From a virus (Duplodnaviria > Heunggongvirae > Uroviricota > Caudoviricetes): 64,000 bases of DNA. Positions within the stretch are counted from its first letter, which is position 1. The number at the start of each line of letters is the position of its first letter. Below are positions 5,392 to 49,840 of the stretch, piece by piece. Made by a program: the position numbers and the translations under genes. Where the stretch lies: IMG/VR virus record IMGVR_UViG_3300029746_000007, positions 19,505 through 83,504 of that record; one strand, given 5' to 3'. Under the pieces are notes generated by a model. The model was not told the DNA's origin. It saw only the letters and a program-made list of their open reading frames with translations, and made no database searches.

Positions 5392-5430
5392 ACTTGAAAC
5401 AAGATTTTTAATAGGTAAGGAGAAGAGAAT

Positions 5431-5757
5431 ATGACAGTAGAAAGACTGATTAAACAATTGGAAAATTACAATCCAAAGGCAGAAGTTAGGTTGAATGATT
5501 GTAGAGGAACAACCGCTTTATTTGCTGTGGCTTTAGCTGATAACGATGACCTTGTGTGGATTGAAGGCAAAGATGATATTGATCTCGGAGAGGAAATTTC
5601 TGCAAGGTTTGAAAGAGCAAGCGAAATTCAGACGGATGAACTTGATTTCTTTATGGATTTACTTGATATGGGGATCACATTGAAAGATATTGAGTTATAT
5701 TGTCCAGACAAATATGAATACAGTAAGACATTTATGGAAGATCATGGGCTGATTTAA
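5431..5757 (+). CDS. hypothetical protein
   Basis: AAGGAGAAG RBS. Confidence 0.45.
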   Translation: MTVERLIKQLENYNPKAEVRLNDCRGTTALFAVALADNDDLVWIEGKDDIDLGEEISARFERASEIQTDELDFFMDLLDMGITLKDIELYCPDKYEYSKTFMEDHGLI

Positions 5758-5788
5758 TCAGCCTTTGAAACGATGATTTCAGAAACGC

Positions 5789-6055
5789 ATGTATAGAAAG
5801 AAGAGGTGCATAATGGAAACTTTATTCTTTAATAACGAAACGATCATTGTTACGGAAAATATAAATGGAGATATGTATTTATTAAAGTCAAAATATATTC
5901 AAGACATTTTGGATGATTCGGACGGAAATTGTGATTTTGTTCCACCAAACGATGCAAGAGTGTATTTTGCAAGCTGGAACGGAAAACCGATCAGTCCATA
6001 TGAATATACCGATTTTGAATCACTAATTAAATGGTTTAGAGAATTACAGAGATGA
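5789..6055 (+). CDS. hypothetical protein
   Basis: plus-strand ORF. Confidence 0.4.
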   Translation: MYRKKRCIMETLFFNNETIIVTENINGDMYLLKSKYIQDILDDSDGNCDFVPPNDARVYFASWNGKPISPYEYTDFESLIKWFRELQR

Positions 6056-6088
6056 TAAAACAATGATTTCTTAATTGGAGGAAATATT

Positions 6089-6409
6089 ATGTTGGAGTAC
6101 AGAGAAAGAAATGGAAATAAGCATATTGTATCTGATAATGAATTGAATGCTTTTGCATGGGCTGGATACTATGCGAATTGTTCAACTATTTTAATTAATG
6201 GTAAAAGCTACGAAGTTGTTCATGTAACTGATAGCGAAATTGAATTTGCAGATGGGACATACCTTCCATTTGGGTGCTATTCAATTTTCAAAAGTGATGA
6301 TGAAGTGAAATTCTTTGATGACTATAAATTGAGAGAAGTCAGAAAGGAGAACCCGTTAGAACACGAATATTACTGTTTTAATGATGAACAGTTTTTAAAA
6401 GTGGCATGA
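6089..6409 (+). CDS. hypothetical protein
   Basis: TTGGAGGAAAT RBS. Confidence 0.45.
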   Translation: MLEYRERNGNKHIVSDNELNAFAWAGYYANCSTILINGKSYEVVHVTDSEIEFADGTYLPFGCYSIFKSDDEVKFFDDYKLREVRKENPLEHEYYCFNDEQFLKVA

Positions 6410-6434
6410 TGAAACGGAAATTTCAAAAAGGAGA

Positions 6435-6746
6435 TTGATAAGTATGAATAAAGAGATACATTGGTATGAATTATGCTTCTATGGAGACGAGGATGAAGAA
6501 TGTGAAAAATACGATGCAAGTAAAGCTTGTAGTTTTGTAATTAAAACAGAAATACCACCTGTAATTGATCCAGAAGTTGCTCTGAAAATTTTGTTTGGAG
6601 ATCCAAGGGAGCAGTGGGAAAAAGAACTTATGGAAAATTGTACTTGTGTAATGGAAATAACGGAAGATGATGCGAATTATTTTGATATAGAAGATCTTAC
6701 CAAAAGGGTAGAAAGTGAGTACGGAGTATATTACACAAGGCAATGA
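6435..6746 (+). CDS. hypothetical acidic protein
   Basis: AAAGGAGATTG RBS; the likely start is the ATG at 6444. Confidence 0.45.
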   Translation: MISMNKEIHWYELCFYGDEDEECEKYDASKACSFVIKTEIPPVIDPEVALKILFGDPREQWEKELMENCTCVMEITEDDANYFDIEDLTKRVESEYGVYYTRQ

Positions 6747-6773
6747 AAAGCACATTTCAAGGGAGGATACGAT

Positions 6774-7124
6774 ATGGATTTACTTAGTTTTATTACGAAG
6801 AAATATAAAGATAAAATTAAAAAATTGGAAGATCAAATTAAATTTATGAAATGGGAATGGGAACAAGAGCGACAATTATATGGAAAAAAAACAAAAGAAA
6901 GATTTTTAAAACAGAAGGTTGATTGGATAATTGGTGGAGTCGATTTAAAAACACATAGGGAAATACATAGACCTATATATGGATTAACAAAAACAGAAAC
7001 AAAAGAGATATGCGAGGTTACAAAATACCATTTAAACAAAACAGGATTTAAAGCACAAGTTTTATTTCATTGGAGCGAAGATAAATCGTGTTACGTTATT
7101 GATGTAAAAATAATCGGATATTGA
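6774..7124 (+). CDS. hypothetical protein
   Basis: AGGGAGGATACG RBS. Confidence 0.45.
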   Translation: MDLLSFITKKYKDKIKKLEDQIKFMKWEWEQERQLYGKKTKERFLKQKVDWIIGGVDLKTHREIHRPIYGLTKTETKEICEVTKYHLNKTGFKAQVLFHWSEDKSCYVIDVKIIGY

Positions 7125-7377
7125 TGAAAAGTACGTTTCTATAGAAAGGAAAATAAATGGATTATGGAAGATATTGAAGATTGATTGGAGGTAGATGATA
7201 TGTTGAGATGTTTAATTGATGCTTCTATTCCAGAAGATGATAAATGCTCTAAATGTTGTTTTTATTGTGATGAAAAAGATAGTTGCGAACACAGATGTGT
7301 TGGACTTGAAGAATGGAAAACGGAAGAAGAAATTGAAAATAATTGTACAGAATGTTGTTAATGAAAACCGCATTTGA

Positions 7378-7674
7378 TTGGAGGTTAAATATATGGATTC
7401 AAGATTTTTTGAAAGAAAATGTTTTACAACAACGTCAGATTGTTTGTTGGAATTTATGAAAGAACAGGTTGACGATTCATCTTTGACATTTAATATGGAA
7501 AAAGATACTAAAGAAGTGTTTCTATATAGTCCAGCATATGATGTTGAGTATAATGAAGATGATATTATTGATCGGGTTGGAAATGAATTAGGAGTTGAGA
7601 TTAATAATATTTTTGTAGATGGAGATGAATATTGCGCTGCAATTTATTTTACAGTAAGAAAATTAGAGCAATGA
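7378..7674 (+). CDS. hypothetical protein
   Basis: TTGGAGGTTAAAT RBS. Confidence 0.45.
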   Translation: MEVKYMDSRFFERKCFTTTSDCLLEFMKEQVDDSSLTFNMEKDTKEVFLYSPAYDVEYNEDDIIDRVGNELGVEINNIFVDGDEYCAAIYFTVRKLEQ

Positions 7675-7842
7675 AAACAGTATTTCTTGGAGGAAGTTTA
7701 TGGAAGAAAAATATAAAGAATTATTAGACGAATTAGAAGAAAAGTATAATGATTTAATAGAAATTTACCCGGATAAATTTGAGTTAGTGATATTTGCACA
7801 TGAGGTAACAGAAATTTTAATAAAATATGACAAATTAAAACA

Positions 7843-8392: not shown

Positions 8393-8405
8393 ATGAAAGA
8401 GAGGT

Positions 8406-8714
8406 TTGATTGTAATGGAAAGAGCTAAAGCAATTATTATTGCACATGATTTTATTGAAAATATGAATCCTGATCATTGGAATGGGGTTGGAAACAAACC
8501 AAAATCTTTCAAAGATTACTCACAGCAGCGTTCATTAACAAAAAATGTAAATTTGGAAATTACATTTGTATATAATGAAGTAGACGGATGGCATCATTGT
8601 TGTGATTTGGTGAATAAATCAGATAACAGTTCTTTTGATATGTTAAGCGGAAATAGTATTAATTCAGTAATAGATCTTGCAAATACAATTATGGATTTAT
8701 GTAAGGACTATTAA
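8406..8714 (+). CDS. hypothetical protein
   Basis: plus-strand ORF; an intrinsic terminator follows it. Confidence 0.45.
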   Translation: MIVMERAKAIIIAHDFIENMNPDHWNGVGNKPKSFKDYSQQRSLTKNVNLEITFVYNEVDGWHHCCDLVNKSDNSSFDMLSGNSINSVIDLANTIMDLCKDY

Positions 8715-8773
8715 CAAGACAATGAAAGTCGGATTTCAAACGGAGGAAATAATCAAATAAATACATAGAGAAT

Positions 8774-8805
8774 ATAAGAGTGTCAAAACGATACTCTTAT
8801 TTTTT
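8774..8805 (+). terminator. rho-independent terminator
   Basis: 8-bp stem ATAAGAGT/ACTCTTAT with an 11-nt loop, then TTTTTT. Confidence 0.65.
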
Positions 8806-8976
8806 AATATGAAAGGAAAATTACAATGAAAAAAATATTTTGTGAAACCGAAGAAAAATTTTACGAGATGAAAAGAAGATATGACTTGGAAGATTGTGGA
8901 ATGTCTGGGTTGTATCCGGAATACCACTGGTATCAAGATGCAAATGCAAATGTGGCAGTATATAGGAGGTGCTGAT

Positions 8977-9478: not shown

Positions 9479-9766
9479 ATGAGCAAAAGAAAAGGGAATC
9501 CGAAGAAGTCATCGGAATTTATTTGTCTAAGATGCTTGAGAACAGAAGGATGTACTTGTAACGGATTGCAGAGAATACACAATATGAGAAAAGAGAATCA
9601 TGTGAAAAATCAATGGTGCGCTTTTGGCAAAGAAGAAGTTAAAGCATTGGAGATTAGAGAAAAGGATTTTTATTGTGAAAAACGTATAGAAGCAGAGATT
9701 TTGCATGAGAAATATTATGGAGGAAATGATTATGCAGGGATTGGCAGTAAAAGATGTAGAATTTAA
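9479..9766 (+). CDS. Cys-rich hypothetical protein
   Basis: CLRCLRTEGCTC motif; probable start is the ATG at 9479 (the ORF track lists 9470). Confidence 0.4.
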   Translation: MSKRKGNPKKSSEFICLRCLRTEGCTCNGLQRIHNMRKENHVKNQWCAFGKEEVKALEIREKDFYCEKRIEAEILHEKYYGGNDYAGIGSKRCRI

Positions 9767-10874
9767 TGGTGCGGTATTGAGAGCTGCACAGGTGGAAGAT
9801 ATTGTATATGTAGGTGTTAGATGGGTATGTCAAGGACTTGGATTAAGTGACGGGAAAGTTAAAAGTGAAAGAAAGAAAATACAAGAAGATTTAGTTTTAA
9901 AGCAAGGGACGAGATTTCTTCCCTTGGGTACAGGTAATTCAGACAGCGAAGTTTTATGTCTAATATTAGACTATCTTCCATTATGGTTAGCAAAGATTTC
10001 TATTACTCCGACAATGAAAAGAGAAAATCCGGAATTGGTCAATAGGTTAATTGAATATCAGCTTAAAGCGAAAAATGTGTTAGCCGAAGCATTTCTTTCC
10101 AAGAGAAAAGAAGAGATTATTCCGGCAGTTAGGAATAATATGATTCAGATTCCTATTCCTGAAGCTCCAAACTATGCAGAAGAATTTGAAATTCTTTATG
10201 CAAAATTAGACGACCTGGAAGAACAGAATCAGAAATTATATAATGGTATGTCAAACATGGCGAAGTTGCTTCTTGACATGAGTTCACGAAAAGAAACACA
10301 ATTGCCGGATATTAAACCTGTAAAAGAAATTTCGGAAGAAGATTCGTGGAAACAGATTGTGTACGGCAAAGCGGAAAACATCGTATGTAATAGTAGTTTC
10401 CGTAAAACAGCAAGTGTCCTGAAACATATCTATGATTATATGAGACAGAATTATGGTATTTGTTGGGAACAGGAGGCAAAAGACTATAAGGAACGGAATA
10501 ATCTCAGCTATTCACCAAAGACCATTGAGGTTGTGTATCAAAATGAAGATCTTCGAAGTATTTTCATAGCTGTGTTGACAGATATGGAATATAAAGCAAA
10601 AGAAGCTAAGGAAAAGAAGAATGAAATTGATTGGTCAGACCAACAGATTCTTCCATTGGTTAAGAAATACAATGATCACAGTAATGGTTTCATGGTTACA
10701 TATAGAAAAGTGTACGTTAGGATGGAAGAAAATAGTCGAATCAGTTGGAAAAATCTAACCACTAGATACATAAATGAATGTGGTGGAAAACCAACCAAGA
10801 AAGATTTGATTAATACACGAAAGTCTTTACAGAAAAAATTTACAAAGGCAATTGAAGAATTGATGGCAGAATAA
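9705..10874 (+). CDS. phage antirepressor-like protein (P22 Ant N-terminal / ORF6N-like domain)
   Basis: N-terminus LAVKDVEFNGAVLRAAQVEDIVYVGVRWVCQGLGLS resembles the antirepressor N-domain family; the true start is probably the ATG near 9724-9731 after GGAGG. Confidence 0.55.
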   Translation: MRNIMEEMIMQGLAVKDVEFNGAVLRAAQVEDIVYVGVRWVCQGLGLSDGKVKSERKKIQEDLVLKQGTRFLPLGTGNSDSEVLCLILDYLPLWLAKISITPTMKRENPELVNRLIEYQLKAKNVLAEAFLSKRKEEIIPAVRNNMIQIPIPEAPNYAEEFEILYAKLDDLEEQNQKLYNGMSNMAKLLLDMSSRKETQLPDIKPVKEISEEDSWKQIVYGKAENIVCNSSFRKTASVLKHIYDYMRQNYGICWEQEAKDYKERNNLSYSPKTIEVVYQNEDLRSIFIAVLTDMEYKAKEAKEKKNEIDWSDQQILPLVKKYNDHSNGFMVTYRKVYVRMEENSRISWKNLTTRYINECGGKPTKKDLINTRKSLQKKFTKAIEELMAE

Positions 10875-11655: not shown

Positions 11656-11717
11656 ACATAAAAGAATTGTTTCATGCGAGGTAAATGAATAATAGAATAA
11701 TAATTTTATTTAGATGG

Positions 11718-11780
11718 AAATACCACCAAATTAGTGGAAAAATGTGTTGACATACCACTTAATTGGTGGTATTTTATAAT
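11718..11780 (+). promoter_or_regulatory. promoter with a flanking 20-bp inverted-repeat operator (AAATACCACCAAATTAGTGG / CCACTTAATTGGTGGTATTT) around a TTGACA -35 box
   Basis: the two arms are reverse complements at 18 of 20 positions; TTGACA at 11747..11752; the right arm overlaps the spacer and -10; it lies upstream of the HTH gene 11807..12307. Confidence 0.45.
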
Positions 11781-13056: not shown

Positions 13057-13111
13057 GAAATTTAAGAACAAATGAAACCAAGTTTTTATCCAACGGAATG
13101 GAGAATAGATT

Positions 13112-13327: not shown

Positions 13328-13670
13328 AATGGAATTAGATGATTTTATTAAATATTCTAAAGAGAGGTTTGGGGTTGAAGTTTCTGTGAAAGAGAGCGAA
13401 GATCCTGATACGTTTGGTAAGATTTTTGGAGATGTAGTAGAGGATAATGGTATGAAAATAAGTAAAAATGCAATTGAAAATATGATGTTGGTATATATTA
13501 ATCATAAGCAAATTCTTAATGAATATGAATCAGAAATGGATGAAAGAGAAATGGAAGAAGACGCTAACTATAATTTCCATAGAGGATGCTGCGAAACGGC
13601 AGAAACATGGATGAGAGCAATCGGCGTCAGTCCGGATTGTGAGTTTATTAGAGAAAAAATGAGTGAATGA
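13314..13670 (+). CDS. hypothetical acidic protein
   Basis: ATG at 13314 overlaps the upstream stop; the ORF track lists an earlier start at 13269. Confidence 0.4.
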   Translation: MEINKMELDDFIKYSKERFGVEVSVKESEDPDTFGKIFGDVVEDNGMKISKNAIENMMLVYINHKQILNEYESEMDEREMEEDANYNFHRGCCETAETWMRAIGVSPDCEFIREKMSE

Positions 13671-13694
13671 AATCTAAGTTCCAGGAGGTAACTA

Positions 13695-13959: not shown

Positions 13960-14184
13960 ATGTGTAAAAAATTTAAAAATTTTGATGGAGGAGAACCATT
14001 TTTAAAACCTGAAAAGCCTTTTATGTTAGTGTATGAAAGTGAAAAGGATGGAATGTCTATTGCATGGTTGGAAACAGAAGAAGATATGATGGAAACTATC
14101 GAAGAAGTAAAATCTTTTGGTAGTACAATTGTTGATGCAATAGAAATTGGAAGTTGTAGAGAATTTGATATTGATGAAATCTAG
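13960..14184 (+). CDS. hypothetical protein
   Basis: AGAGGAGGACAAT RBS. Confidence 0.4.
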   Translation: MCKKFKNFDGGEPFLKPEKPFMLVYESEKDGMSIAWLETEEDMMETIEEVKSFGSTIVDAIEIGSCREFDIDEI

Positions 14185-14203
14185 GTTTCGGGAGGCAAAT
14201 TAA

Positions 14204-14440
14204 ATGAAAAATAGTTGGAAATATTTTATTGTATTAAATGAGATTAAATACGGATTAAGCAATATTGTAGAAAATAAAGATTACTCTGGTAATGGATTAC
14301 CATTATGTCAAGATTTTTCTGTAGCAATTAATTTTTCGTCACCAGATGAACTGCTTAGATGGGTGCAAGAAAATACAGATCTTGAAATGGAAAATGGAGA
14401 TTTTCATATTGAGGGGCATTATTTGCCAGTTGAAATTTAA
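14204..14440 (+). CDS. hypothetical protein
   Basis: GGGAGGCAAATTAA RBS. Confidence 0.4.
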   Translation: MKNSWKYFIVLNEIKYGLSNIVENKDYSGNGLPLCQDFSVAINFSSPDELLRWVQENTDLEMENGDFHIEGHYLPVEI

Positions 14441-14534
14441 CTTTCCTTTGTTATTAAGGATAAAGATTTTTTTGAGATATTTGGAATTGAGGTGAAAGAC
14501 AATTAGTAAATTAATACAGAAATTAAATTGGGAT

Positions 14535-14834: not shown

Positions 14835-15293
14835 ATGGATTCAGACAAATATAATGGAGATATCATCAAGATTGACCGACTGATTGAATTTTTACCAACC
14901 GAACATTGGTCTTGGGATGAAACAGGAGAAATTGATCTGGATGATATCTCTGTTGCAATATACGAACCCGTTCCAGAAATACCTGATCCATATGGAGATA
15001 CATGGAAACATCCAGTGTTAGAACAGAGATCAAGAGAATGGCATATTGGAAGAATAATTTATTTTATTAATCATCCAATGGAAATAAGAGATATTGAGAT
15101 TGATAATGAATGCAGTGGTAATTTTATTCTTCCACAACCAATTATTGTAGATGGTTGGCATAGATATGCAGCAGCAAGATGGTTATATGACCAAGGCAAA
15201 CTGACAGAAATTCATTGTAGATATGGTGGTCGAGCTGATGTGCTTGAATATTTACAAGGGAAAACAGATGACTTATTGTGGGAAGCTATATAA
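14835..15293 (+). CDS. ParB/Srx-fold (ParB N-terminal-like) domain protein
   Basis: motif PIIVDGWHRYAAARWL resembles the ParB N-domain DGhhR...A signature. Confidence 0.45.
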   Translation: MDSDKYNGDIIKIDRLIEFLPTEHWSWDETGEIDLDDISVAIYEPVPEIPDPYGDTWKHPVLEQRSREWHIGRIIYFINHPMEIRDIEIDNECSGNFILPQPIIVDGWHRYAAARWLYDQGKLTEIHCRYGGRADVLEYLQGKTDDLLWEAI

Positions 15294-15338
15294 TAAAGAA
15301 ATGACGATTTCATGGTTATGGAAAGCAGGTGAAGTAAA

Positions 15339-15872
15339 GTGAAAATAACAAGATTTAAAGATATTCCTCAATTGACAAGAGCTGGAACGTACAATACCAA
15401 TATTCCATTAACTCATATTTTAAAAACGCTTTCAGAATGGGAAGAAGATGAATATTATCGTTTACAATTAAATCCTAATTTTCAACGTGGGCATGTATGG
15501 ACAGAAATTCAACAAATTGCATATGTTGAATTTTTACTGCGTGGAGGGAAATCAGCAAAGGTAATTTATTTTAACAAACCAAGTTGGCAGATGGTTAAAC
15601 CTATTAATGGATATGATGATTTTGTATGTGTTGATGGTTTGCAAAGAATTACAGCAGTAACTAAATTTTTAAAAAATGAAATTAAAGTCTTTGGTAGTTA
15701 CTATAAAGATTTTGAGGACAAAATACCTCTCAGTGTAGACCTGATTTTCAATGTAAATGATCTTAAAAGTGAAAAAGAAGTTCTTCAATGGTATGTTGAT
15801 ATGAACGCCGGTGGAACACCACATACAAATGAAGAGATTGAGCGTGTTAAGAAAATGATTGGAAAATTATAA
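15339..15872 (+). CDS. DUF262 (ParB-like, GmrSD N-terminal-type) domain protein
   Basis: motifs NFQRGHVW and VDGLQRITAV match the DUF262 QR..VW / DGQQR signatures; GTG start after AGCAGGTGAAGTAAA. Confidence 0.55.
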   Translation: MKITRFKDIPQLTRAGTYNTNIPLTHILKTLSEWEEDEYYRLQLNPNFQRGHVWTEIQQIAYVEFLLRGGKSAKVIYFNKPSWQMVKPINGYDDFVCVDGLQRITAVTKFLKNEIKVFGSYYKDFEDKIPLSVDLIFNVNDLKSEKEVLQWYVDMNAGGTPHTNEEIERVKKMIGKL

Positions 15873-16270: not shown

Positions 16271-16287
16271 GTTGAAAAATTGCTTTC

Positions 16288-16539
16288 ATGGAGAATTATA
16301 TAATGGGTTATTCAATACAAGAAGAGAATGAGTTAAATAATCAACTTAAAAAATGGCAAGATAAACAAATAAAAGCAGTGAGAAGAAAGAATTTTGATTA
16401 TGCTTGTGAGAAAATGCATCCCGGAGATATGAGTGTTTGGAAAATAATTGCAAATGCAGAATCGTATAAAGATGTGAGCAATGGAGCATGGGATCAGGCA
16501 GAACGTGTGGTTGAAAAATATTATAAGTTGGCAAAATGA
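16288..16539 (+). CDS. hypothetical protein
   Basis: plus-strand ORF. Confidence 0.4.
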   Translation: MENYIMGYSIQEENELNNQLKKWQDKQIKAVRRKNFDYACEKMHPGDMSVWKIIANAESYKDVSNGAWDQAERVVEKYYKLAK

Positions 16540-17205: not shown

Positions 17206-17540
17206 TGAAAGATTGTTTTCATATAAGAGAGGTGAATAATAATGAATGAACGTGTCTTATATAATGCGCAAAAATCTGTTATTGAGGAAGTAAAACAAGA
17301 GTTGCTTAAAAAAGCAGAAACAGAAAGACAGAGAAATGTTATTAAAGAAGTATGCAGAGCCGTGGCTAGAAAACATAAATTTGATGATTTGAAAACCTGA
17401 TGAAACAGACTTTTCTTCAAGAAAATTCTTGAATATTAATAAGTAAAAATGTAATATAAAAGAAAGATCGTCTGTCAAAATGATAAACAGTAACATATTG
17501 ATGTACCGGAAACGGAATATATTTTTAGGAGGATTTTTAT

Positions 17541-18009: not shown

Positions 18010-18163
18010 GTTACTTAAAAATAAATAGACGGAGAATAAATAATAGGAAAGGAAGTGATAGATATGTGTGAAAAGATTGATGAAAAGAATCCGGATGTTC
18101 AGGAGAAAGAAGTCAGGCGAATGGAAGTTTGGGAATATTTAGAATGGAAGGTTGGTGAGAAGA

Positions 18164-19213
18164 ATGAAAAAGACAGATAAATTAAAAAAACAATTACAGG
18201 ATAAAATCATCACAATGGATGAATTAGATATTACAATGGAAGACATCGGATATAATCTGGTAGAAATTGATGACAATGAAAACAACGTGATTAAATATAC
18301 AAATGGAAAGTCATTTATCAATGTATATGTCATGCATGATGGACAAGAATATATGGTAACGGATATTACGATGTCCAATAAGAAACGTGGTAGCACAACT
18401 GTAAGAGCATTTCATACAATTGAAGAAATAAAAGGAATGATGGATTGGTTCAGAGACAATGAGCAATATGATAATTTCTTGACTTTTATGTTAGGCTTAT
18501 TCCTTGCAAGACGTGTTGGTGATACGTTGTCATTAAAGTGGAGAGACTTCTACTTTGAAAATGGTAGAAGAAAAGAAAGTCTTAATACATTAATTGAAGA
18601 TAAAACCGACAAAATAGTTGATATGCATATTTCTGATGTTACGTGGAAATATATTGATTGGTATTGTGAAAAAACAAATATTGATCCAAAAGAACATCTC
18701 AATGAGGATATCTTTAAATCTTTGCATAAAGATTGGTTGCCGAATAATTATACGAAAAAACAATATGATGAAGCTGTAGAAAAAATGGAATCTTCATATC
18801 GTAATCAATTTAAAAAGGCAGCAGAAGCGTGTGGAATCAATGGTGTAAGTACACATAGCACACGTAAGTCATTTGGATATATAGCGCATGAAATTAACAG
18901 ATTTGATCCAGATTGCTATCCGGTATTACAGAGTGTGTATGGTCATGGTTCTGTAGAAACAACAAAAAGATACATTGATTGCATAAGAGAGAAAGCAAAT
19001 AAGATGTTTGAAGATGTAGCAAAATACATTGAAGATGTAGATAATGGGATAACACCTGAAATAAAGAATTTACTCATTGTAGCACTTTCGACAAATGATT
19101 TACGAGATGTATTATATACTGCTCTTAAACTTGGAAGAGAAACGAATGTAGAAGATGATGTTGAAAGTATGAATATGCTATTATCTATGGTAGAAGAAAA
19201 GCGTGTATCATGA
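18164..19213 (+). CDS. int: tyrosine recombinase / phage integrase
   Basis: motifs ARRVGDTLSLKWRDF (Arg I), HSTRKSF (HxxR box) and HGSVETTKRYI (catalytic Tyr) are typical of the tyrosine-recombinase family; the ATG at 18164 follows GGTGAGAAG. Confidence 0.85.
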   Translation: MKKTDKLKKQLQDKIITMDELDITMEDIGYNLVEIDDNENNVIKYTNGKSFINVYVMHDGQEYMVTDITMSNKKRGSTTVRAFHTIEEIKGMMDWFRDNEQYDNFLTFMLGLFLARRVGDTLSLKWRDFYFENGRRKESLNTLIEDKTDKIVDMHISDVTWKYIDWYCEKTNIDPKEHLNEDIFKSLHKDWLPNNYTKKQYDEAVEKMESSYRNQFKKAAEACGINGVSTHSTRKSFGYIAHEINRFDPDCYPVLQSVYGHGSVETTKRYIDCIREKANKMFEDVAKYIEDVDNGITPEIKNLLIVALSTNDLRDVLYTALKLGRETNVEDDVESMNMLLSMVEEKRVS

Positions 19214-19247
19214 TATAATTAGAACATATGTATGGAGGCGATAAATA

Positions 19248-33744: not shown

Positions 33745-33745
33745 T

Positions 33746-38882: not shown

Positions 38883-39131
38883 ATGGATTTTTATTCAGTC
38901 GATTGTAAAAGAGTGATATTTAAAAATGGAAAATGGGAAGCTAATAATCGGACAGAAATGCTAGTTGTGTTAGCAGAAAATGAAGAAGATGCGTTAAAAA
39001 AGATAAATAATAGTCTTAATAATAGGGAAACTGATAATGTGAAATATGTATTATCAAGTGAAATTATTCGTCGTAATGGTTTGCTTTTTGTAAGCTTATT
39101 TGGGGATGGCGATGTCGCTGTGCCTGTTTAA
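38883..39131 (+). CDS. hypothetical protein
   Basis: ATG at 38883 after GGAGGGTAT; the ORF track lists 38841. Confidence 0.4.
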   Translation: MDFYSVDCKRVIFKNGKWEANNRTEMLVVLAENEEDALKKINNSLNNRETDNVKYVLSSEIIRRNGLLFVSLFGDGDVAVPV

Positions 39132-39158
39132 ATATTACTTTCATGGAGGTGAATTTGC

Positions 39159-40028: not shown

Positions 40029-40343
40029 ATGATTAGTGCAGAAAAAATGAGAAAGTATTTTTCTAGAAAATATTCTGATAGAAATACTGCAAAAATGATA
40101 ACAAAAGAGATAAAAATTAATATCGAATATGGTGTAGTTGATCCTACATTTGTTGGAAAATGGTATAAGGGATTATCTGAAGGCACTATAAGAATTCTAA
40201 TGAAAAAAGGATACATCATAAGGGTTGGAGAAGATAGGCATGAGGGTGAATTAGGCGTATTATTTAGAGACGTTGATGAAGACAATTATATTGGACGGCT
40301 TTATACGTTACCGGATGAAAAATCTGTTTCAAATGAGGAATAA
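40029..40343 (+). CDS. hypothetical protein
   Basis: plus-strand ORF. Confidence 0.4.
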   Translation: MISAEKMRKYFSRKYSDRNTAKMITKEIKINIEYGVVDPTFVGKWYKGLSEGTIRILMKKGYIIRVGEDRHEGELGVLFRDVDEDNYIGRLYTLPDEKSVSNEE

Positions 40344-40576: not shown

Positions 40577-40615
40577 CGGTAGAAATTCCGCTTTCAACTG
40601 GAGGTGAATCATAAG

Positions 40616-42364: not shown

Positions 42365-42503
42365 AAATAAAATGAATTGAAATTTTTCTTTCATTCGGTA
42401 GTCATGAATGCTGCGTGAAAGAGCAAATAATTAATTACATATGGAAGGAAAGTAGAGTAATTCTAGATAAGATGCTTACGTAAGCCTTGAAAAATAAGGC
42501 AAT

Positions 42504-42755
42504 TTGAGCAATATAAATGAAAGAAAAACTTCCACTGATGGACTTAGAGTGTTAAGTCTATGTGGAGGAGTAGAAACTGGATTATATGCTTTACAAAAGT
42601 TGGGCATTCCGGTGAAAGAATATCATACATATGAGATTCTGCCTGAAGCTATTGCAGTTTCTCAGTACCATTTTCCGTTTGTGGTACATCATGGAGATTT
42701 ATATAAAGCGGATTTTGATCAATTCAAAGGATTTGACTTTTCAGATGTCTTATAG
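42504..42755 (+). pseudogene. N-terminal fragment of a C5 cytosine DNA methyltransferase (motif I region only)
   Basis: LRVLSLCGGVETGLYALQKLGIPVKEYHTYEILPEAIAVSQYHFPFVVHHGDLYKADF resembles Dcm motifs I-III (FxGxGG-type loop as LCGG); the ORF stops after 83 aa. Confidence 0.5.
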
Positions 42756-43761: not shown

Positions 43762-44799
43762 ATGAAAATATTGACTGTAGAGAAAATAAAGAAGAAATTG
43801 AACAATCAAGAATATGATTTCCTTAGGACGAATGAACATCTTGGAGAGAATATTATACTGCTTGGTCTTGGCGGTAGTTATTCATATGGCACAAATATAG
43901 AATCCAGTGATGTTGATTGCAGAGGTGTGGCATTGAATTCAAAGAAAGAAATTCTATTTGGGAACGGATTTGAGCAAGTAGAGAATAAAGAAACAGATAC
44001 CGTGATTTATTCATTTGTAAAAATTGTAAGTCTCTTGTCTAATTGTAATCCAAATGTAATTGAAATGCTTGGACTTAAGCCAGAACATTACTTATACATA
44101 TCACCAATAGGGAAAGAACTTTTAGAGAATAAAAAAATGTTCTTATCTAAGAAGGCAGTAAATTCTTTCGGTGGTTATGCCAATTCTCAACTGCGACGTT
44201 TGGATAACAAGGCAGTAAGACTTGTGGGACAAGAACAACGAGAGAGACATATTTTGAATAGTATTAATAATGCTTCTGTGAATTTCAAAGAAAGATATTT
44301 TCAATACCCAGATGATGCAATCAAATTGTACATTGACAAATCTGATAGTGAGGATCTTGATTCAGAAATCTATATGGATGTAAAACTTACAAAATATCCT
44401 CTTAGAGATTATAAAGCAATGTGGTCTGAAATGAATAATGTAGTAAAAGATTATTCCAAGATTGGTAAAAGGAATAAACATGCAATTGAGCATGGAAAGC
44501 TTGGAAAACACATGATGCATCTGATTCGACTTTATATAATGTGTCTTGATATTCTGGAGAATAAAGAAATAGTGACATATAGAGAGAAAGAACATGATCT
44601 TCTGATGTCGATTAGAAATGGCGATTATTTAGATGATAATAGACAACCAATTCCAGAATTCTTTGAGCTGGTGGATGAATATGAAAAGAAAATGGAATAT
44701 GCAAAAGAGAATACAGATTTACCAGATAAACCGAATTACAAAGCCATTCAAGAGTTTGTGATGAGTGTGAATGAGAGAATTGTAAAAGGCGAGATTTGA
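43762..44799 (+). CDS. predicted nucleotidyltransferase-fold protein
   Basis: LLGLGGSYSYGTNIESSDVDCRGV resembles the minimal NTase G[SG]x(9-13)DxD motif. Confidence 0.4.
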   Translation: MKILTVEKIKKKLNNQEYDFLRTNEHLGENIILLGLGGSYSYGTNIESSDVDCRGVALNSKKEILFGNGFEQVENKETDTVIYSFVKIVSLLSNCNPNVIEMLGLKPEHYLYISPIGKELLENKKMFLSKKAVNSFGGYANSQLRRLDNKAVRLVGQEQRERHILNSINNASVNFKERYFQYPDDAIKLYIDKSDSEDLDSEIYMDVKLTKYPLRDYKAMWSEMNNVVKDYSKIGKRNKHAIEHGKLGKHMMHLIRLYIMCLDILENKEIVTYREKEHDLLMSIRNGDYLDDNRQPIPEFFELVDEYEKKMEYAKENTDLPDKPNYKAIQEFVMSVNERIVKGEI

Positions 44800-45946: not shown

Positions 45947-46690
45947 TTCAATAGAGAATATATAAATAGGTAATTATTCATTGTTTACTGGAAACTTTAG
46001 ACTATGACTCATCTGAGTTTTTATCAGTTACTCCGATGTAAAAAGATAAACAAACTGATACATAAAGAATATAATTTTTACAAAACAGATGGCTTACTAT
46101 GCTAAAGTAAATACCAAATATTAAGATATATTAAGATAACAAAAGCCTCCGGCATGAGAAGTAAACTGCTATAAAGCTAAAAGTTATAAATCTCAAAGAG
46201 TAAAGTTAAAGATTCAAAGTTTTTCATTAGTACAAAGTTCAAACAGTAAAGATAAAAGATATAAAGATTTATAAAATCCCAGATAAAAGGTTGCGAGTAT
46301 AGTTGTAATTGACTTTGGGTTGTCCTCTGGGCTGGTAAATGGTGAATATATTATAAATAATGTTTCCTCCTGTATGATGATACACGGGATACAAATTTTT
46401 CCATACTAAATATATGAGAGTGGAGTATAAATCTCTCACATCAAAATCCAATTGGTTAAGCAGTGGGTTGCGATTGGCATCAATATAGAGAATATATAGA
46501 TGAAGAAACTACTGTAAATTACAATGGGCTGTGGTGAATAAGTAAACACATATGGCTTTGACCCATATATTAGTGGGGGCAGTACCCACCAGCCTAGTTT
46601 GTCTGAATTATCAATCAGACACTCCTTTCTAAAATTGATGCTTTATCACAAATAGGTTGGCAACTTACCTCATAAAAGTTGTAAGTTTCT

Positions 46691-46764
46691 GGAGCGTTAG
46701 CATAGTTGGTTAATGCATGTGCCTCATAAGCATAAGATCACCCGTTCAAGTCGGGTACGCTCCA
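46691..46764 (+). tRNA. tRNA-Met/fMet-like (anticodon CAT)
   Basis: manual fold: acceptor GGAGCGT/ACGCTCC, D-arm GCAT-AGTTGGTTAA-TGC, anticodon stem TGTGC/GCATA with loop CTCATAA, T-arm ACCCG-TTCAAGT-CGGGT. Confidence 0.6.
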
Positions 46765-46880
46765 TGAGAGATACTTGACCTTACACTTTTCCAAAGCACT
46801 CTGGAACAAAGGTTAGCGAAAAGTGCGCTTAAGACATTGCGTATTAGTCATGTGCGAAAACATGGGTGCGCTTATAATAC

Positions 46881-47027: not shown

Positions 47028-47198
47028 TTTGTGGATTGATACAATGCTAGTTGTTGAGATTCACATATCCGAACGAAAGTATGCCATGAGAAAGCATATT
47101 TGAATTGTATAAGTGTCGTTAAACAGCAAACTTTCTCCGACATTTATATTTCATAGGTTGTAGCGCGCATAATCTGTGACGGAACTATTACATTAGTG

Positions 47199-47276
47199 TG
47201 GCAATTAGCTCAGTAGGGAGAGCAAAGAACAAGGTATACTTTTCTACGGTCGGTGGTTCGAGTCCATCATTGTCAC
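47199..47276 (+). tRNA. tRNA (anticodon unresolved; anticodon stem has a mismatch and the variable region is extended)
   Basis: acceptor TGGCAAT/ATTGTCA, D-arm GCTC-AGTAGGGA-GAGC, T-arm GGTGG-TTCGAGT-CCATC. Confidence 0.5.
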
Positions 47277-47340
47277 ATCGGTTAGATAATAACCGAAATC
47301 ATAGTTTTTCATACTTTTCATTGACGTTTGTTTACGGGTT

Positions 47341-47408
47341 TGGCTGTTGGTGTAAATGGATAGCACGTTATTGCCGTAAAGATAAAGGTTCGAATCCTTT
47401 ACAGTCAA
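47341..47408 (+). other. tRNA-like degenerate element (too short for a canonical tRNA)
   Basis: T-arm AAAGG-TTCGAAT-CCTTT and acceptor TGGCTGT/ACAGTCA pair, but only 17 nt lie between the D- and T-arms. Confidence 0.3.
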
Positions 47409-47629: not shown

Positions 47630-47944
47630 TTGAAAGATACAGAAAAATTCGAAAAAGAATTAGAAGATATGGTCAAGTATGTTTTCGGTGAAGAAGACTT
47701 CAAACCTCTTGTAGAAACATTAAAAAAATTATCAGAAGCCGGAGAGCATGAAGATAATTTAAATCTCAATATTTCTCAATTAAAAAAGAGAATAAAGTAT
47801 TGTAGAAATCCATTAGAAAAACAATCTCTACAGAGAGAATTAAATACATTATATAAGAAAAGAAAGAGAGGACTTAATTATGGGAACACATTATGGAAAG
47901 ATGAAAAGTATTTTTGCAAAACTGGACAATCAGTTAGGAGCTAA
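47630..47944 (+). CDS. hypothetical protein
   Basis: TTG start after TAGGAGGTGAATG; alternative upstream starts would overlap the RBS. Confidence 0.35.
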   Translation: MKDTEKFEKELEDMVKYVFGEEDFKPLVETLKKLSEAGEHEDNLNLNISQLKKRIKYCRNPLEKQSLQRELNTLYKKRKRGLNYGNTLWKDEKYFCKTGQSVRS

Positions 47945-48006
47945 TAAAGCTGCGATGGCAAAGAAGAAACATGATAAAGAGAATGCTAAGAAGGAGAATA
48001 AATAAT

Positions 48007-48351
48007 ATGGATACAATGACAAAAATGGCACTTAGAAAAATGCTTTCAGAGGGATTAGATACAGAAGAACCAAAGGATACATCAATGGATGATATGATTA
48101 AAGAATATATCAACAAATATAAGCCTACTGTATATATGGTATGTAAAGAAATGCTTGAGATTATGAAGGACTTTGTGAAGAACGATGACTATTACAAAGT
48201 AGTCGCAGAGAATAAAAGAAATATGTATGATGCATATGTAAAAACAGGATTCTCGGAAGATCAGGCAATGGCATTAGTTCTTAATGACAACCTCCAGCTT
48301 ATGAAATCCATTCAGAATGCTAAAACAACGACGAATTCAAAGAATAAATAA
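48007..48351 (+). CDS. hypothetical protein
   Basis: ATG at 48007 after AGAAGGAGAATAAATAAT. Confidence 0.4.
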   Translation: MDTMTKMALRKMLSEGLDTEEPKDTSMDDMIKEYINKYKPTVYMVCKEMLEIMKDFVKNDDYYKVVAENKRNMYDAYVKTGFSEDQAMALVLNDNLQLMKSIQNAKTTTNSKNK

Positions 48352-48386
48352 CCGGATGAAAGTGACATTTTAGGAGGAGATAGAAT

Positions 48387-48788
48387 ATGAATTTTGGAAA
48401 AGCAATTGAAGCATTAAAAGATGGTAAGAAAGTGGCACGTAAAGGATGGAATGGTAAAGGAATCTATCTGGAAATGTATTCGCCAGAAGTCAATCTTGAA
48501 ACTATTGCAGAAGCAGTGCATAACGCATGGTGGGAAGAAAAGAAAAAACAGGGAGTTACAGATCACCCGGATATGATTCCGTATTCTGAACTGAGTGAAG
48601 AAGTGAAAGAATACGACAGAGTTACAGCAAGAACAACTATTGAAGCATTCAATTATATGACGCATTCGTTCATATATATCAACACTACTGGATTACAGAC
48701 AGAAAATCCTTATGCGCCTAAAAATAAAGTGCCGTGGACACCGTCTCAGACAGATATGCTATCTGAAGACTGGATGATTGTAGAGTAA
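48387..48788 (+). CDS. DUF2829-family protein with an inserted RyR-like domain
   Basis: MNFGKAIEALKDGKKVARKGWNG start and SQTDMLSEDWMIVE end match DUF2829; the internal IAEAVHNAWWEEKKKQG...HPDMIPYSELSEEVKEYDRVTARTTIEAF matches the RyR-domain pattern. Confidence 0.5.
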   Translation: MNFGKAIEALKDGKKVARKGWNGKGIYLEMYSPEVNLETIAEAVHNAWWEEKKKQGVTDHPDMIPYSELSEEVKEYDRVTARTTIEAFNYMTHSFIYINTTGLQTENPYAPKNKVPWTPSQTDMLSEDWMIVE

Positions 48789-48833
48789 ACATAGATTTCA
48801 TTTTGGATTGGAGAATAACAAGGTGGTGAGATT

Positions 48834-49100
48834 TTGAAAAAGAAAATTGCAGCGATTGTTCTTGGGTTGTCAATATGTTTTTGTATGACAGGGTGTGGTA
48901 ATGGAGACATAACGCCAACAAACAACAAGCTTGGAAATAAATATTTTGATCTTGTTGATATTTATGAAGCTGGGTACACGACTGTTGCCTATGATAAAAA
49001 TACTAATGTAATGTATTATATGGTAGAATCTGGAAATGCTTTTGGTATAACACCAATTTATAATTCAGATGGAACTTTGAAATTATATGAAGGAGAATAG
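48834..49100 (+). CDS. lipoprotein
   Basis: signal peptide MKKKIAAIVLGLSICFCMTGC with lipobox MTGC. Confidence 0.55.
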   Translation: MKKKIAAIVLGLSICFCMTGCGNGDITPTNNKLGNKYFDLVDIYEAGYTTVAYDKNTNVMYYMVESGNAFGITPIYNSDGTLKLYEGE

Positions 49101-49102
49101 AA

Positions 49103-49597
49103 ATGGCAAAAAGTATATTTGTACAACGAGAAGTTGAAGAAATATATGAAAGTTATGTCAAGTATGATTGGATTTATGGTACTACTTCTTCAAGAGAACA
49201 TTATATCAAAAAACCAAAAAAGTATGATATGCGATATTCTTGTAAAGATAATGTACTAAGTCAAAAAATTATTGGAGAATATAATATTGACAATCCTCCA
49301 CTAAAAGTTGGAGAAGAATTTTTTCTGTGTGACATAAAAAAGTTGGTAAAAATTCATAAAAGATGTCGTAACTCAGATGGTTCATTTACATATTATATTG
49401 AAGATAAATATATCGAAACAGAGAATACAAAATTATCAAAAGAAAAATGTGAAAAAGATTTTGATAGATATTGCGCTTGTGTAGATGAGCTTGATGAATT
49501 ACGTAAAAAATTTTGTGATTACAAAAGAGAATATAAGTATAAACACAGATTCTTCAATTTTAGATCAGATAAAGCACCAAATGATAAGAACCGATGA
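49103..49597 (+). CDS. hypothetical protein
   Basis: plus-strand ORF starting right after the upstream stop. Confidence 0.45.
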   Translation: MAKSIFVQREVEEIYESYVKYDWIYGTTSSREHYIKKPKKYDMRYSCKDNVLSQKIIGEYNIDNPPLKVGEEFFLCDIKKLVKIHKRCRNSDGSFTYYIEDKYIETENTKLSKEKCEKDFDRYCACVDELDELRKKFCDYKREYKYKHRFFNFRSDKAPNDKNR

Positions 49598-49840
49598 ATC
49601 TAATCTTTCATTCGGACTAACATAAATATAAAAATCACGGATCAATTCGATCCATAAATTCCAAATATTCAAACAACCGAATAGAGAATAAATATGGGTG
49701 GACAGGCATACCCTTGGGTTTTTGCACTCAAAAATCACCTTTTACATAGAAATTCACATAAATTTATTTCTGTGTTCCGTCCGTATGGGCGTTTAAATAA
49801 ATAACAAAAAAATTATACATATATAAGGAGGATTCATTTA

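Follow-up and report, generated by a model that had tools for sequence, protein, structure and literature searches.

The 64-kb window, i.e. the whole stretch of DNA analysed here, belongs to a large gut prophage and carries an interrupted palindrome of 16–18 bp, (A)TGAAA-N6-TTTCA(T), at approximately 30 junctions among small accessory genes. The same element recurs throughout the phage family, and in many related contigs from gut phages no inverted repeat ranks higher. We tentatively favor, over an RNA hairpin, a docking site in double-stranded DNA that serves a symmetric dimer and is present many times along the accessory-gene arrays.

Form and enrichment of the palindrome

Exact copies of TGAAA-N6-TTTCA were counted in the window 16 times at a spacing of six and zero to two times at each other spacing between 0 and 30. 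The spacer had originally been described as N5/6; six (N5 plus a frequent A) is the strict value, and five did not hold up as an alternative. Family-wide, 265 copies were found at spacing 6 as compared to about 14 at others. When each of the 1024 possible pentamers was screened without bias at spacings 2–12, the TGAAA repeat ranked first. In the whole window, the exact motif at spacings 4–8 was observed 17 times (2.8 in shuffles), and the motif with at most one mismatch 41 times (13.2 in shuffles). Non-coding DNA, which makes up approximately 17% of the window, harbors 32–33 of these 41 sites. When 9.3 kb of non-coding segments were compared with dinucleotide shuffles, 12 exact copies (0.05 expected) and 30 copies with at most one mismatch (1.2 expected) were observed. 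This enrichment scan against shuffled intergenic DNA, which had been proposed along with the claim that the motif is too regular for chance, placed the motif far above chance and bore the claim out; it also defeats the null explanation of stop-codon context plus Shine-Dalgarno (SD) composition. All 18 positions named in the original prediction carry TGAAA-N6-TTTCA, nine exactly (5766, 6410, 6744, 8723, 17206, 29394, 31298, 36510 and 36733/42378) and nine with one arm mismatch (including 5395, 7362, 7672, 8394, 13668, 14175, 48357 and 49595).

Among 260 unique family sites the arms are invariant, and the spacer is fixed in length with a sequence information of about 0 bits (at most 0.14 bit per position). 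Its inner edges follow a symmetric 'not A / not T' rule. Of the family sites, 72% have A and 21% have T at position 0, the A being mirrored by T at position 17. No further conserved element was found within ±50 bp of the motif.

Sites in the window and in related phages

Two further parts of the original prediction apply to a minority of sites. The TGA of the motif, which had been thought to be the upstream stop codon, is a real stop in five of 32 junction sites; a further 15 are preceded by a separate stop codon that ends 0–10 nt upstream. A ribosome-binding site (RBS) was said to follow directly, and a strong one is present at about 13 of the 32 sites (GGAGG, GGAG or GAGG 0–6 nt past the motif) and not at the others. 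An SD-like sequence lies within 12 nt of 125 of the 260 unique family sites, and approximately one third of motif sites are far from any start codon.

The junction site GGAAATAGCAATTTCA (3448-3463, one mismatch) coincides with a homology breakpoint with the related loci L093 and L094. It is followed by TGAAACAAGATTTTTA (5395-5410, one mismatch), TGAAACGATGATTTCA (5766-5781, exact) and the exact junction sites 6410-6425, where a stop codon ends immediately 5', and 6744-6759, whose TGA is the stop codon and which has GGAGG 2 nt 3'. Junction sites with one mismatch are located at 7125-7140 (adjoining a stop, next start 59 nt away), 7362-7377 (GGAGG 2 nt 3'), 7672-7687 (TGA is the stop codon, GGAGG 1 nt 3') and 8394-8409, a breakpoint in six related loci. 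The exact junction site at 8723-8738 is followed by GGAGG without an ORF, a deletion scar relative to L094, and a terminator-like hairpin (8774-8800) lies downstream of it. Two weak sites with one mismatch may be due to chance: TGAAAGGAAAATTACA (8810-8825) and 21352-21367, which has a TTG start directly 3'. The junction site TAAAAGAATTGTTTCA (11659-11674, one mismatch) marks a gene-block end upstream of a terminator-like sequence (11752-11772). One mismatch is also present in the junction sites 13073-13088, 13668-13683 (TGA is the stop codon, GGAGG abuts), 14175-14190 (GGAGG abuts), 14431-14446, AGAAATGACGATTTCA (15297-15312) and 17401-17416 (adjoining a stop, next start 124 nt away), while those at 16273-16288 and 17206-17221 are exact.

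Further downstream, the HSP with L082 ends at the intergenic site 25189-25204 (one mismatch). Exact sites are found at 28304-28319, where promoter-like TTGACA...TATATAGT follows; at 29394-29409, a junction with abutting GGAGG; at 31298-31313, where TGA is the stop codon and L083 homology ends exactly at the right arm; at 36510-36525, abutting the stop of a PurA-like gene and differing in its spacer in L086; and at 36733-36748, a junction with GGAGG 2 nt 3'. The junction site TTAAATATTACTTTCA (39128-39143, one mismatch) has GGAGG 1 nt 3'. The exact site 40316-40331 lies within the last 28 nt of the CDS 40029-40343, and its spacer and downstream gene are replaced in L081. One-mismatch junction sites are present at 40581-40596 and 48357-48372 (GGAGG abuts), and a long non-coding stretch begins at the exact site 42378-42393. 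The site at 49595-49610 (one mismatch, longer flanking stem) forms the left boundary of the conserved replication module, and 57 related loci break there. Just right of this module, L003 homology ends at the right arm of the exact site 61894-61909.

In the complete 176-kb relative MT835469, all 25 exact sites map to the early/accessory arm (11–103 kb), and none was found in the 73-kb late arm. The motif is confined to one arm and absent from replication and late/structural modules. In long spacers 41 sites lie near a stop and 24 near a start, with few in mid-spacer, so that the motif hugs ORF ends. The C. difficile phage phiCD211 has TAAAA-N6-TTTTA, a sister form, at the equivalent position, and both arms have switched together to this form in L129, L149 and phiCD211. 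Such a joint switch between lineages is the pattern expected of a dimer co-evolving with its palindrome, and it is equally what a hairpin would show. On the sense strand the phiCD211 element is asymmetric (12 of 14 sites have T at position 6, with no corresponding A at position 11), which hints at an orientation-dependent role. The only proteins common to the window phage and phiCD211 are replication proteins. No homologues of the window's HTH repressor (19806-20153) and none of its tyrosine recombinase (18155-19213) were found in MT835469, where the motif is the same. Identical arms occur even in phages with DnaE only 39% identical; this would be unusual for an immunity repressor, and a host factor or RNA-level partner would fit better.

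Hairpin, linker and promoter as alternatives

It is possible, if rather doubtful, that the motif acts in polycistronic early mRNA as a small hairpin between stop codon and next RBS, bound or cut by a sequence-specific protein such as a phage translational repressor, an endoribonuclease (RegA-, RegB- or Csy4-like) or a conserved host factor, with individual cistrons being uncoupled, silenced or processed as a result. The motif is invariably located in transcribed spacers within arrays of co-directional genes, is found in the early arm only and is near an SD at the frequencies given above; the G-C to A-U change between lineages retains arm complementarity, the phiCD211 element is asymmetric on the sense strand, and deep conservation amid phage-protein turnover would fit a host RNA-handling partner. 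However, the stem is marginal (0 to -2.7 kcal/mol for the 18-nt core, mean -1.1) and the SD is never within it, which speaks against the RBS-occluding hairpin originally suggested. The loop holds no information, whereas RNA-binding proteins usually read loops. About half of the family sites adjoin no RBS/SD or ORF, and Rfam contains no family matching the motif. Pairing is not favored by the variants either. SD-adjacent sites in TG-type genomes comprised 83 of class cc, 8 of A·C type, 12 of G·U type and 3 compensated, with no compensated pairs at the other four stem positions; these counts give no RNA-pairing signature. Single-arm variants that keep a G·U pair are hence not preferred over those giving A·C, A-to-G changes in the 5' arm are not in excess, and compensated pairs are not enriched within a lineage at any of the five stem positions. 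Nor is there selection for closing pairs, as positions 0/17, -1/18 and 6/11 pair no more than expected.

Breakpoint data raise the question of whether the palindrome is primarily a recognition or crossover point for the exchange of accessory cassettes between co-infecting phages or prophages, which we consider unlikely. Such exchange would be carried out by a dimeric recombinase or nuclease, or else by microhomology recombination, and in this sense the palindrome would resemble T4-type PeSLs or integron attC sites. The share of locus comparisons with a break was 92% at motif junctions, 77% at spacers of 15 nt or more that lack the motif and 42% at tight junctions; counted by junction, 30 of 31 with the motif showed a break as compared to 31 of 44 (Fisher p=0.005). 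Many site pairs have one flank in common and the other unrelated, switching exactly at the motif edge (right arm 55, left arm 51). Motif density tracks hyperplastic ORFan arrays, the motif brackets the conserved replication module without entering it, and a shared linker would account for conservation across a gene-exchange community without a shared regulator. Yet the locus comparisons are non-independent, and since motif-less junctions often break too, enrichment of breakpoints at the motif is moderate. A homology-driven linker should be one contiguous conserved stretch, not two 5-bp arms and a free spacer; classical tyrosine-recombinase exchange would be blocked by spacers that vary among sites, and the window's own enzyme is not conserved in MT835469. 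Moreover, a conserved island amid fast-evolving DNA yields breakpoints whatever its function. Very improbable are two further explanations. A phage sigma-like factor (22075-22773; phrog_1740 match with E=3.9e-5, weak GerE/region-4 match) is encoded in the window, and the motif is class-specific to the early arm; as a promoter or promoter element, also proposed originally, it would nevertheless lack a partner element within ±50 bp, its palindromic form with a 6-bp gap is unlike a -35/-10 layout, a start site downstream would strip the adjacent SD from the mRNA, and MT835469, despite an identical motif, has a sigma-like protein of only 27% identity. It is just as hard to accept that ATGAAA starts a short coupled peptide (M-K-x-x-F-H/Q...) that hands ribosomes on from the stop of the upstream gene to the start of the next. 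The A or T at position 0 would give ATG or TTG, and the mini-ORF stop adjoins the following start in a few cases (6410, 14175, 29394 and 36733), but lengths scatter from 0 to 32 codons and stops lie anywhere between 66 nt into the next gene and 326 nt ahead of that gene; besides, the position-0 A matches the T at position 17 as palindrome symmetry and is partly due to abutting TGA/TAA stops.

A proposed dimer site among dispersed phage operators

The reading as a DNA site builds on two half-sites of 5–6 bp with centres about one helical turn apart, a geometry that suits a two-fold symmetric, dimeric DNA-binding protein. Across the family, the half-sites degenerate independently of each other, and the left arm does so as much as the right (excess +34/+24, +16/+13 and +38/+31). 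Against it stands that all sites are on transcribed spacers, 40–50% abutting an SD, and that a road-block gives no obvious reason for their hugging ORF ends. The layout is identical to that of the CRP-type site, TGTGA-N6-TCACA, which differs in arm sequence, and the arms resemble half-sites of the CcpA cre (TGAAA-N4-TTTCA-like), from which the motif differs by a spacing of six instead of four and by having no central CG. Unlike these operators, it has no fixed distance from promoters. An operator repeated intergenically in a large temperate phage and bound by a master repressor is known from the C1 operators of P1.

Among precedents for dispersed intergenic operators is SPBRE of the Bacillus prophage SPbeta, a single sequence that recurs in many intergenic locations of a large temperate phage, where the master repressor MrpR binds it (PMC10516654). 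SPBRE sites number approximately 10 and all lie in promoter regions, whereas about 30 putative sites per 64 kb, mostly without promoter, occur here. Another precedent are the stoperators of Cluster A mycobacteriophages, sites of the L5 gp71 repressor thought to stop read-through transcription; they likewise exist in dozens of copies within a temperate phage, placed in its short intergenic gaps and often in contact with a stop or start codon, and co-vary in sequence with phage lineage (PMC9283540, PMC6550527). Stoperators are, however, 13-bp asymmetric sites of a monomeric repressor, oriented with transcription in both genome arms, while the symmetric 5-6-5 palindrome is restricted to the early/accessory arm, with arms identical across very divergent phages. 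The start-associated sequences and extended SAS (SAS/ESAS) of Cluster K mycobacteriophages share with the motif the restriction to the non-structural genome half, a location directly 5' of start codons that includes or adjoins the SD, and a consensus varying between sub-lineages; ESAS is also an inverted repeat just 5' of the SD (PMC3203893, PMC12699233). In contrast, SAS is asymmetric, spans 13 bp and contains the SD, and ESAS has 17-bp arms with a variable 4–13 bp spacer, whereas the motif has arms of 5–6 bp, a spacer of exactly 6 bp and the SD outside the element, and approximately half of its sites are not start-associated. PeSLs (promoter-early stem-loops) of T4-type phages are comparable as short repeats in hyperplastic ORFan-rich regions which flank gained, lost or swapped genes and have recombination breakpoints at the repeats (PMC2839356, PMC4122927), but they combine a strong sigma70 promoter with a stable terminator stem-loop, both of which the motif lacks.

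Of the roles originally offered, that of a regulator's binding site still stands as a general idea, while the specific mechanisms fare poorly. The motif coincides with cassette-exchange points because the same short sequence flanks unrelated cassettes. As a dimer site, it would have been planted at junctions of small accessory/early gene cassettes in this Lachnospiraceae prophage and its relatives. The few sites abutting promoter-like sequence could work as classical operators. Given its many copies, one regulator might control the whole accessory arm at once, and could silence or road-block read-through transcription along the arrays in a way comparable to stoperators, the C1 operators of P1 or SPBRE of SPbeta.

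A palindrome of fixed spacing at gene junctions

The original prediction had described, at 18 gene junctions of the window, an inverted repeat of TGAAA and TTTCA that was separated by five or six bases and too regular to be due to chance. TGAAA-N6-TTTCA was found at all 18 positions (nine exact copies, nine with one mismatch), and the spacing proved to be six rather than variable: the window contains 16 exact copies with N6 and none to two at any other spacing between 0 and 30. The reversed order TTTCA...TGAAA gave no spacing peak in the window. The regularity was confirmed for the whole window, where 17 exact copies (spacing 4 to 8) were counted compared with 2.8 in shuffled sequences, and 41 compared with 13.2 when up to one mismatch was allowed. 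An origin from stop-codon context and Shine-Dalgarno (SD) composition was contradicted by a test restricted to non-coding segments (9.3 kb), which yielded 12 exact copies compared with 0.05 expected, and 30 compared with 1.2 with up to one mismatch. Twelve of the 30 intergenic TTTCA pentamers lie exactly six bases 3' of TGAAA, and the repeat came first when all 1024 pentamers were scanned blindly at 11 spacings. Shuffles of the whole window and of intergenic DNA alone, together with the spacing histogram and the scan of all pentamers, rule out chance or base composition. In full, the consensus is a palindrome of 18 bp, WTGAAA-N6-TTTCAW. The motif is genuine, and the case for it is far stronger than the original prediction could know.

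Genes were called with a rough heuristic of our own, by which 32 to 34 junction sites are present in the 64-kb window. They cluster in arrays of ORFan genes at 3.4-17.4 kb, 28.3-42.4 kb and 47-49.6 kb. The replication module is bracketed by sites 49595 and 61894, and its interior is devoid of the motif. The TGA of the motif had been taken for the stop codon of the upstream gene; this applies to five of 32 junction sites, while a further 15 are preceded at 0 to 10 nt by a distinct stop codon. Similarly, a ribosome-binding site directly after the motif was seen as a strong SD within 0 to 6 nt at 13 of the 32 sites but not at the others. Among 260 unique sites from the family of related phages, 125 have an SD-like sequence at a distance of up to 12 nt and about half have none; the SD lies outside the conserved element and never within the stem. 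With rough gene calls, 240 of 268 unique exact family sites were intergenic. In long spacers of the family the motif is located at the edge, beside a stop (41 sites) or a start codon (24 sites), and seldom in the middle. The bias towards stop codons, which looked strong in the window (9:2), is weaker at this family-wide ratio obtained with rough gene calls, and was not retained.

The exact motif at 42378 also serves as an arm of an imperfect inverted repeat of 24 nt (42372-42539) whose partner is located 120 nt downstream at 42516-42539. The segment between these arms aligns in opposite orientation with positions 19099-19460 of a related phage locus (L082), so that 42372-42539 is possibly a small stretch of non-coding DNA that is invertible or has been rearranged.

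Several other roles were considered. Promoters of the sigma70 family are bipartite, with some 17 bp between elements whose distance to the start site is fixed. The gap in the motif is 6 bp, and the idea that a phage sigma factor recognizes it was abandoned because no further conserved element was present within 50 bp on either side. Scans for sigma70-type promoters and terminators gave counts that were not enriched, and none of the matches was tied to the motif. Intrinsic terminators have a G+C-rich stem followed by a T-run; the motif stems are A/T-rich without T-run, and the sites were not among the terminator-like matches. A mini-ORF of the form ATG-AAA-x-x-TTT-CAx was rejected in view of its erratic lengths and stop positions.

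The phage and its relatives

The window is AT-rich (31% G+C) and has a strong positive GC skew, with almost all genes on the + strand. Its genes include those for a DnaE-type polymerase (56969-60265), a DnaB-like helicase and an AAA_24 protein. Also encoded are a tyrosine recombinase (18155-19213), an antirepressor domain of the P22 type (9726-10874), a PemK/MazF-like endoribonuclease toxin (20342-20743; Pfam, E=1.6e-14), a Cro/CI-type helix-turn-helix (HTH) protein (HTH_26 repressor; 19806-20153, - strand), a sigma-like protein (22075-22773), a short PurA-like enzyme (35454-36509), and two or three tRNAs. Most of the remaining small proteins (about 110) had no family match in Pfam, and in the search for a motif binder with Pfam and PHROGs (about 110 window proteins) the array genes were almost all ORFans; these searches were run on concatenated proteins, and spurious Serglycin matches due to the GS linker were disregarded. 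Near and distant DNA searches of INPHARED did not give a close or useful match to the window. A DnaE search of IMG/VR revealed 113 stretches encoding a relative, of which 76 distinct loci (62-90% amino-acid identity) were kept. Many of these relatives are located on gut-phage genome contigs of 110-220 kb, and integrated copies are present in Konateibacter massiliensis and Eubacterium segne (Lachnospiraceae). From these large contigs and integrated copies the window is assigned to a large temperate Lachnospiraceae phage. A more distant DnaE relative (37%) is encoded by the Clostridium difficile phage phiCD211.

A number of individual loci deserve mention. ARAGORN predicted tRNA-Met at 46690-46765 and tRNA-Pro(agg) at 47198-47277, while Rfam placed tRNAs at 46691-46764 and 47341-47408, so that the tools disagree. 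Near the tRNA genes lies a gene of the RlaP family (RNA-repair-pathway nucleotidyltransferase; 43771-44799), which is widely conserved (93 IMG/VR phage stretches encode a relative; 80 loci kept, 56-76% identity); this neighborhood is suggestive of a module for RNA damage and repair. The toxin gene (20342-20743) is the first gene rightward of the divergent HTH gene (19806-20153, - strand), with a TTGACA-17-TACAAT promoter between the two at 20271. Within 21016-21065, two Gram-positive LexA (Cheo) boxes, GAACAAATGTTC and GAACATTTGTTC, flank the -35 region of a perfect sigmaA-type promoter (TTGACA-18-TATAAT) upstream of the operon with the sigma-like gene, and from this arrangement the lytic programme looks to be directly under SOS control. 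A three-gene block at 33118-36509 encodes an unknown 208-aa protein, a 292-aa protein of phrog_2971 (function unknown) and the 351-aa PurA-like adenylosuccinate synthetase, and is interrupted by an HNH-AP2 endonuclease gene (34684-35409). In a PDB search bearing on possible 2-aminoadenine synthesis, the PurA-like protein matched PurA only (1e-13) and no PurZ chain. The block appears to be a horizontally mobile module because it is 71-82% identical to its counterpart in MT835469, a complete 176-kb relative, compared with 39% for DnaE. Adjacent genes at 14835-15872 encode a ParB/DGxHR-like and a DUF262/GmrSD_N-like protein, which are among the few window proteins well conserved in MT835469 (75% and 59%, respectively); both might be DNA binders, with no tie to the motif.

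In close relatives the motif was the top inverted repeat, with 71 copies in 160 kb compared with 1.0 at other spacings, and 36 copies in 221 kb compared with 1.5; these related loci are phylogenetically non-independent, and most relatives are represented by 20-kb pieces. The motif again ranked at the top in loci flanking DnaE and in MT835469.1 (176 kb, DnaE 39% identical; 25 copies compared with 1.4). All 25 exact copies of MT835469.1 are located at 11-103 kb, in the positive-GC-skew arm which carries small-gene arrays and replication genes. The opposite (late) arm of 73 kb contained no exact copy, and sites with up to one mismatch were near background there. In L129 and L149, two loci from distant lineages, TAAAA-N6-TTTTA is found in the equivalent place between stop codon and SD. 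The same sister motif occurs in 26 copies in phiCD211 (NC_029048.2), compared with 2 to 12 at other spacings. Of these, 21 lie at junctions of the early arm (68-126 kb, loci L216 and L217), which is encoded on the - strand, and are usually followed by ATA..GGAGG. A tandem pair 24 bp apart (86141, 86165) is present upstream of the gene adjoining DNA polymerase. Given the TG form in the family and the TA form in distant lineages, the general form is therefore TRAAA-N6-TTTYA, in which both arms change jointly between lineages. A literature search with the motif string found no paper that mentions it, and such repeats are not mentioned in the phiCD211-group genome paper.

DNA site, RNA site or site of exchange

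Because the search itself was defined by the ten arm positions, these do not vary among the 260 unique sites. None of the six spacer positions carries more than 0.14 bit, spacer length is invariant, and the sole bias in the spacer is symmetric, A being under-represented at position 6 and T at position 11, just inside the arms. Loop bases are usually what proteins binding RNA hairpins recognize, whereas a dimeric DNA binder reads its two half-sites irrespective of what lies between them. Across the family, variants affecting one arm were equally frequent on the left and on the right, and those preserving a G·U pair were no commoner than those creating A·C. SD-adjacent sites of TG-type genomes, i.e. 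those with TGAAA...TTTCA, comprised 83 consensus sites, eight of the A·C type, 12 of the G·U type and three compensated A-U sites (background 0.7), which is what independent half-sites would predict. In the same set, no compensated pair occurred at any of the remaining four positions of the stem, nor was there an excess of A-to-G changes compatible with pairing. Complementarity at positions 0/17 and -1/18 outside the arms and at 6/11 inside them did not exceed expectation, despite the marginal 5-bp stem. These features suggest, tentatively, that the motif is a duplex-DNA site read by a symmetric (dimeric) protein. The predicted hairpin occluding the ribosome-binding site is at odds with a core folding energy of 0 to -2.7 kcal/mol (mean, -1.1 kcal/mol) and with an SD outside the stem. 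The accompanying idea of a binding site for a phage regulator survives as a repeated putative protein-binding site, DNA being the likeliest form in which it is read.

An operator or processing site acting at the RNA level would fit with the location of the motif, which is always within transcribed spacers, and with the switch to TAAAA/TTTTA between lineages, the only change that retains complementarity. Moreover, phages with almost no proteins in common carry identical arms, a finding that conserved host machinery as the partner would explain more readily, and in phiCD211 the sense strand is asymmetric: 12 of the 14 sites have T at position 6, with no mirrored A. Against it stand the lack of compensated pairs within lineages, of G·U preference and of excess closing pairs, the weak mean folding energy, and the many family sites without SD within 12 nt. 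An excess of TAAAA-N6-TTTTA had been considered as within-lineage compensation and was dismissed, as most pooled copies were conserved coding sites or came from other lineages; within TG-type genomes the compensated form was not enriched. Rfam detected only tRNAs and did not match the motif. Because of the observations favoring RNA, the reading as a DNA site is held with less than even confidence, and an RNA operator or processing site is regarded as less probable.

The motif also coincides with mosaicism. Blocks of homology to 200 related loci very often begin or end at the motif. Comparisons were broken at motif junctions in 92%, at motif-less spacers of at least 15 nt in 77% and at tight junctions in 42% of cases, and at least one break was found at 30 of 31 motif junctions compared with 31 of 44 (Fisher p=0.005); this enrichment is moderate, and the locus comparisons are not independent. 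In many pairs of sites one flank is common and the other unrelated, with the switch exactly at the edge of the motif (31298 compared with locus L083, 40316 with L081, 61894 with L003), and left and right edges are used almost equally (51 and 55). A deletion scar is seen at 8723 when compared with L094. The more frequent breakage of motif junctions than of motif-less spacers would speak for recombination as an explanation in its own right, but a conserved island amid fast-evolving cassettes gives such edges whatever the island does, and we consider this explanation unlikely. Recombination at the motif is best seen as a likely secondary effect that may also be a second function, and not as the main explanation. 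It is likewise unlikely that the motif is the working part of an undescribed cassette system in large Clostridia phages. In one version a dedicated dimeric recombinase or nuclease would read the motif and capture and shuffle accessory genes, as an integron-like platform on phages; in the other a sequence-specific endoribonuclease would cut or bind an RNA site at every junction and thereby insulate cistrons. If true, either version would be common to many gut Lachnospiraceae phages and, in the sister form, to C. difficile phiCD211-like phages.

With respect to a protein that might read the motif as DNA, MT835469 lacks homologues of the HTH_26 repressor and the tyrosine recombinase of the window, though its motif is identical. 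In the family loci there is no homologue of either the HU-like protein or the sigma factor encoded by phiCD211, and only replication proteins are common to the window and phiCD211. A PDB search with the window recombinase gave no match. We infer that one symmetric site at most co-directional junctions of the accessory arrays would let a single protein silence or road-block the whole region. In the few places where the right arm adjoins a promoter-like sequence, TTGACA...TATATAGT (28304, 31298 and MT835469 78809), a classical operator role would be possible.

Comparison with known repeats and significance

The C1 operators of phage P1 are dispersed and act through one protein. Stoperators, the repressor sites of Cluster A mycobacteriophages, are bound by the immunity repressor and block elongation. 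The pattern observed here (temperate phage, late genes without motif, lineage-specific variant) makes the logic of the motif, by analogy, closest to that of such dispersed operators, which also include SPBRE/MrpR (PMC10516654; for stoperators, see PMC9283540, PMC6550527). Like stoperators, the motif recurs many times along the phage genome, in short spaces between genes. However, stoperators are asymmetric 13-bp sites, oriented with transcription and present in both arms; the motif, being symmetric and, in MT835469, confined to one arm, does not belong to this class. It shares with the SAS/ESAS elements of Cluster K mycobacteriophages the confinement to the non-structural half (MT835469; sister motif in phiCD211). 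Those elements contain the SD and lie 3-7 bp upstream of the start codon, and the motif is distinct from them because its SD is outside the element, its arms are short and its spacer is fixed. The PeSLs of T4-type phages likewise flank swapped or inserted and deleted genes in hyperplastic regions (PMC2839356). They combine a strong sigma70 promoter with a terminator stem-loop, whereas the motif has no promoter, a stem of 0 to -2.7 kcal/mol and no U-tract; it is not a PeSL because promoter and stable stem are missing.

Integron attC sites and tyrosine-recombinase core sites have inverted arms around a crossover of 6-8 bp, at the 3' end of a promoterless cassette. The layout of the motif (stop, palindrome, SD, ORF) and its 6-bp spacer are reminiscent of this, but the arms measure only 5-6 bp, spacers vary by site, homology switches about equally often at left and right edges, and the window recombinase is not conserved in MT835469. 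CcpA cre sites and other LacI-family operators are 14-bp palindromes with a central CG (TGWAANCGNTNWCA); the spacing of the motif is six instead of four, and its spacer shows no CG preference. The LexA (Cheo) box, GAAC-N4-GTTC, differs in both sequence and spacing, and genuine Cheo boxes are present elsewhere in the window, at 21016-21055. In sequence or in spacing the motif departs from cre, CRP and LexA sites and is none of these. For SAS/ESAS, and to a degree for PeSLs, a molecular mechanism has not yet been demonstrated (PMC3203893, PMC12699233). By analogy, the motif can be placed in the same broad kind as stoperators, SAS/ESAS and PeSLs, i.e. dispersed intergenic repeats of phage non-structural regions, to whose few known examples it adds a symmetric one that is restricted to one arm.

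Long arrays of uncharacterized small genes are a feature of large temperate phages from gut Firmicutes. One 16-bp signal is placed at most array junctions and kept from uncultured Lachnospiraceae prophages to the cultured phiCD211 (as TAAAA-N6-TTTTA). As a marker it could help to delimit accessory-gene cassettes in metagenomic phage genomes, and as a bait sequence it could serve to fish out the regulator. Lysogens of C. difficile carrying phiCD211 would offer a tractable test of whether such arrays are silenced or shuffled through one common site.
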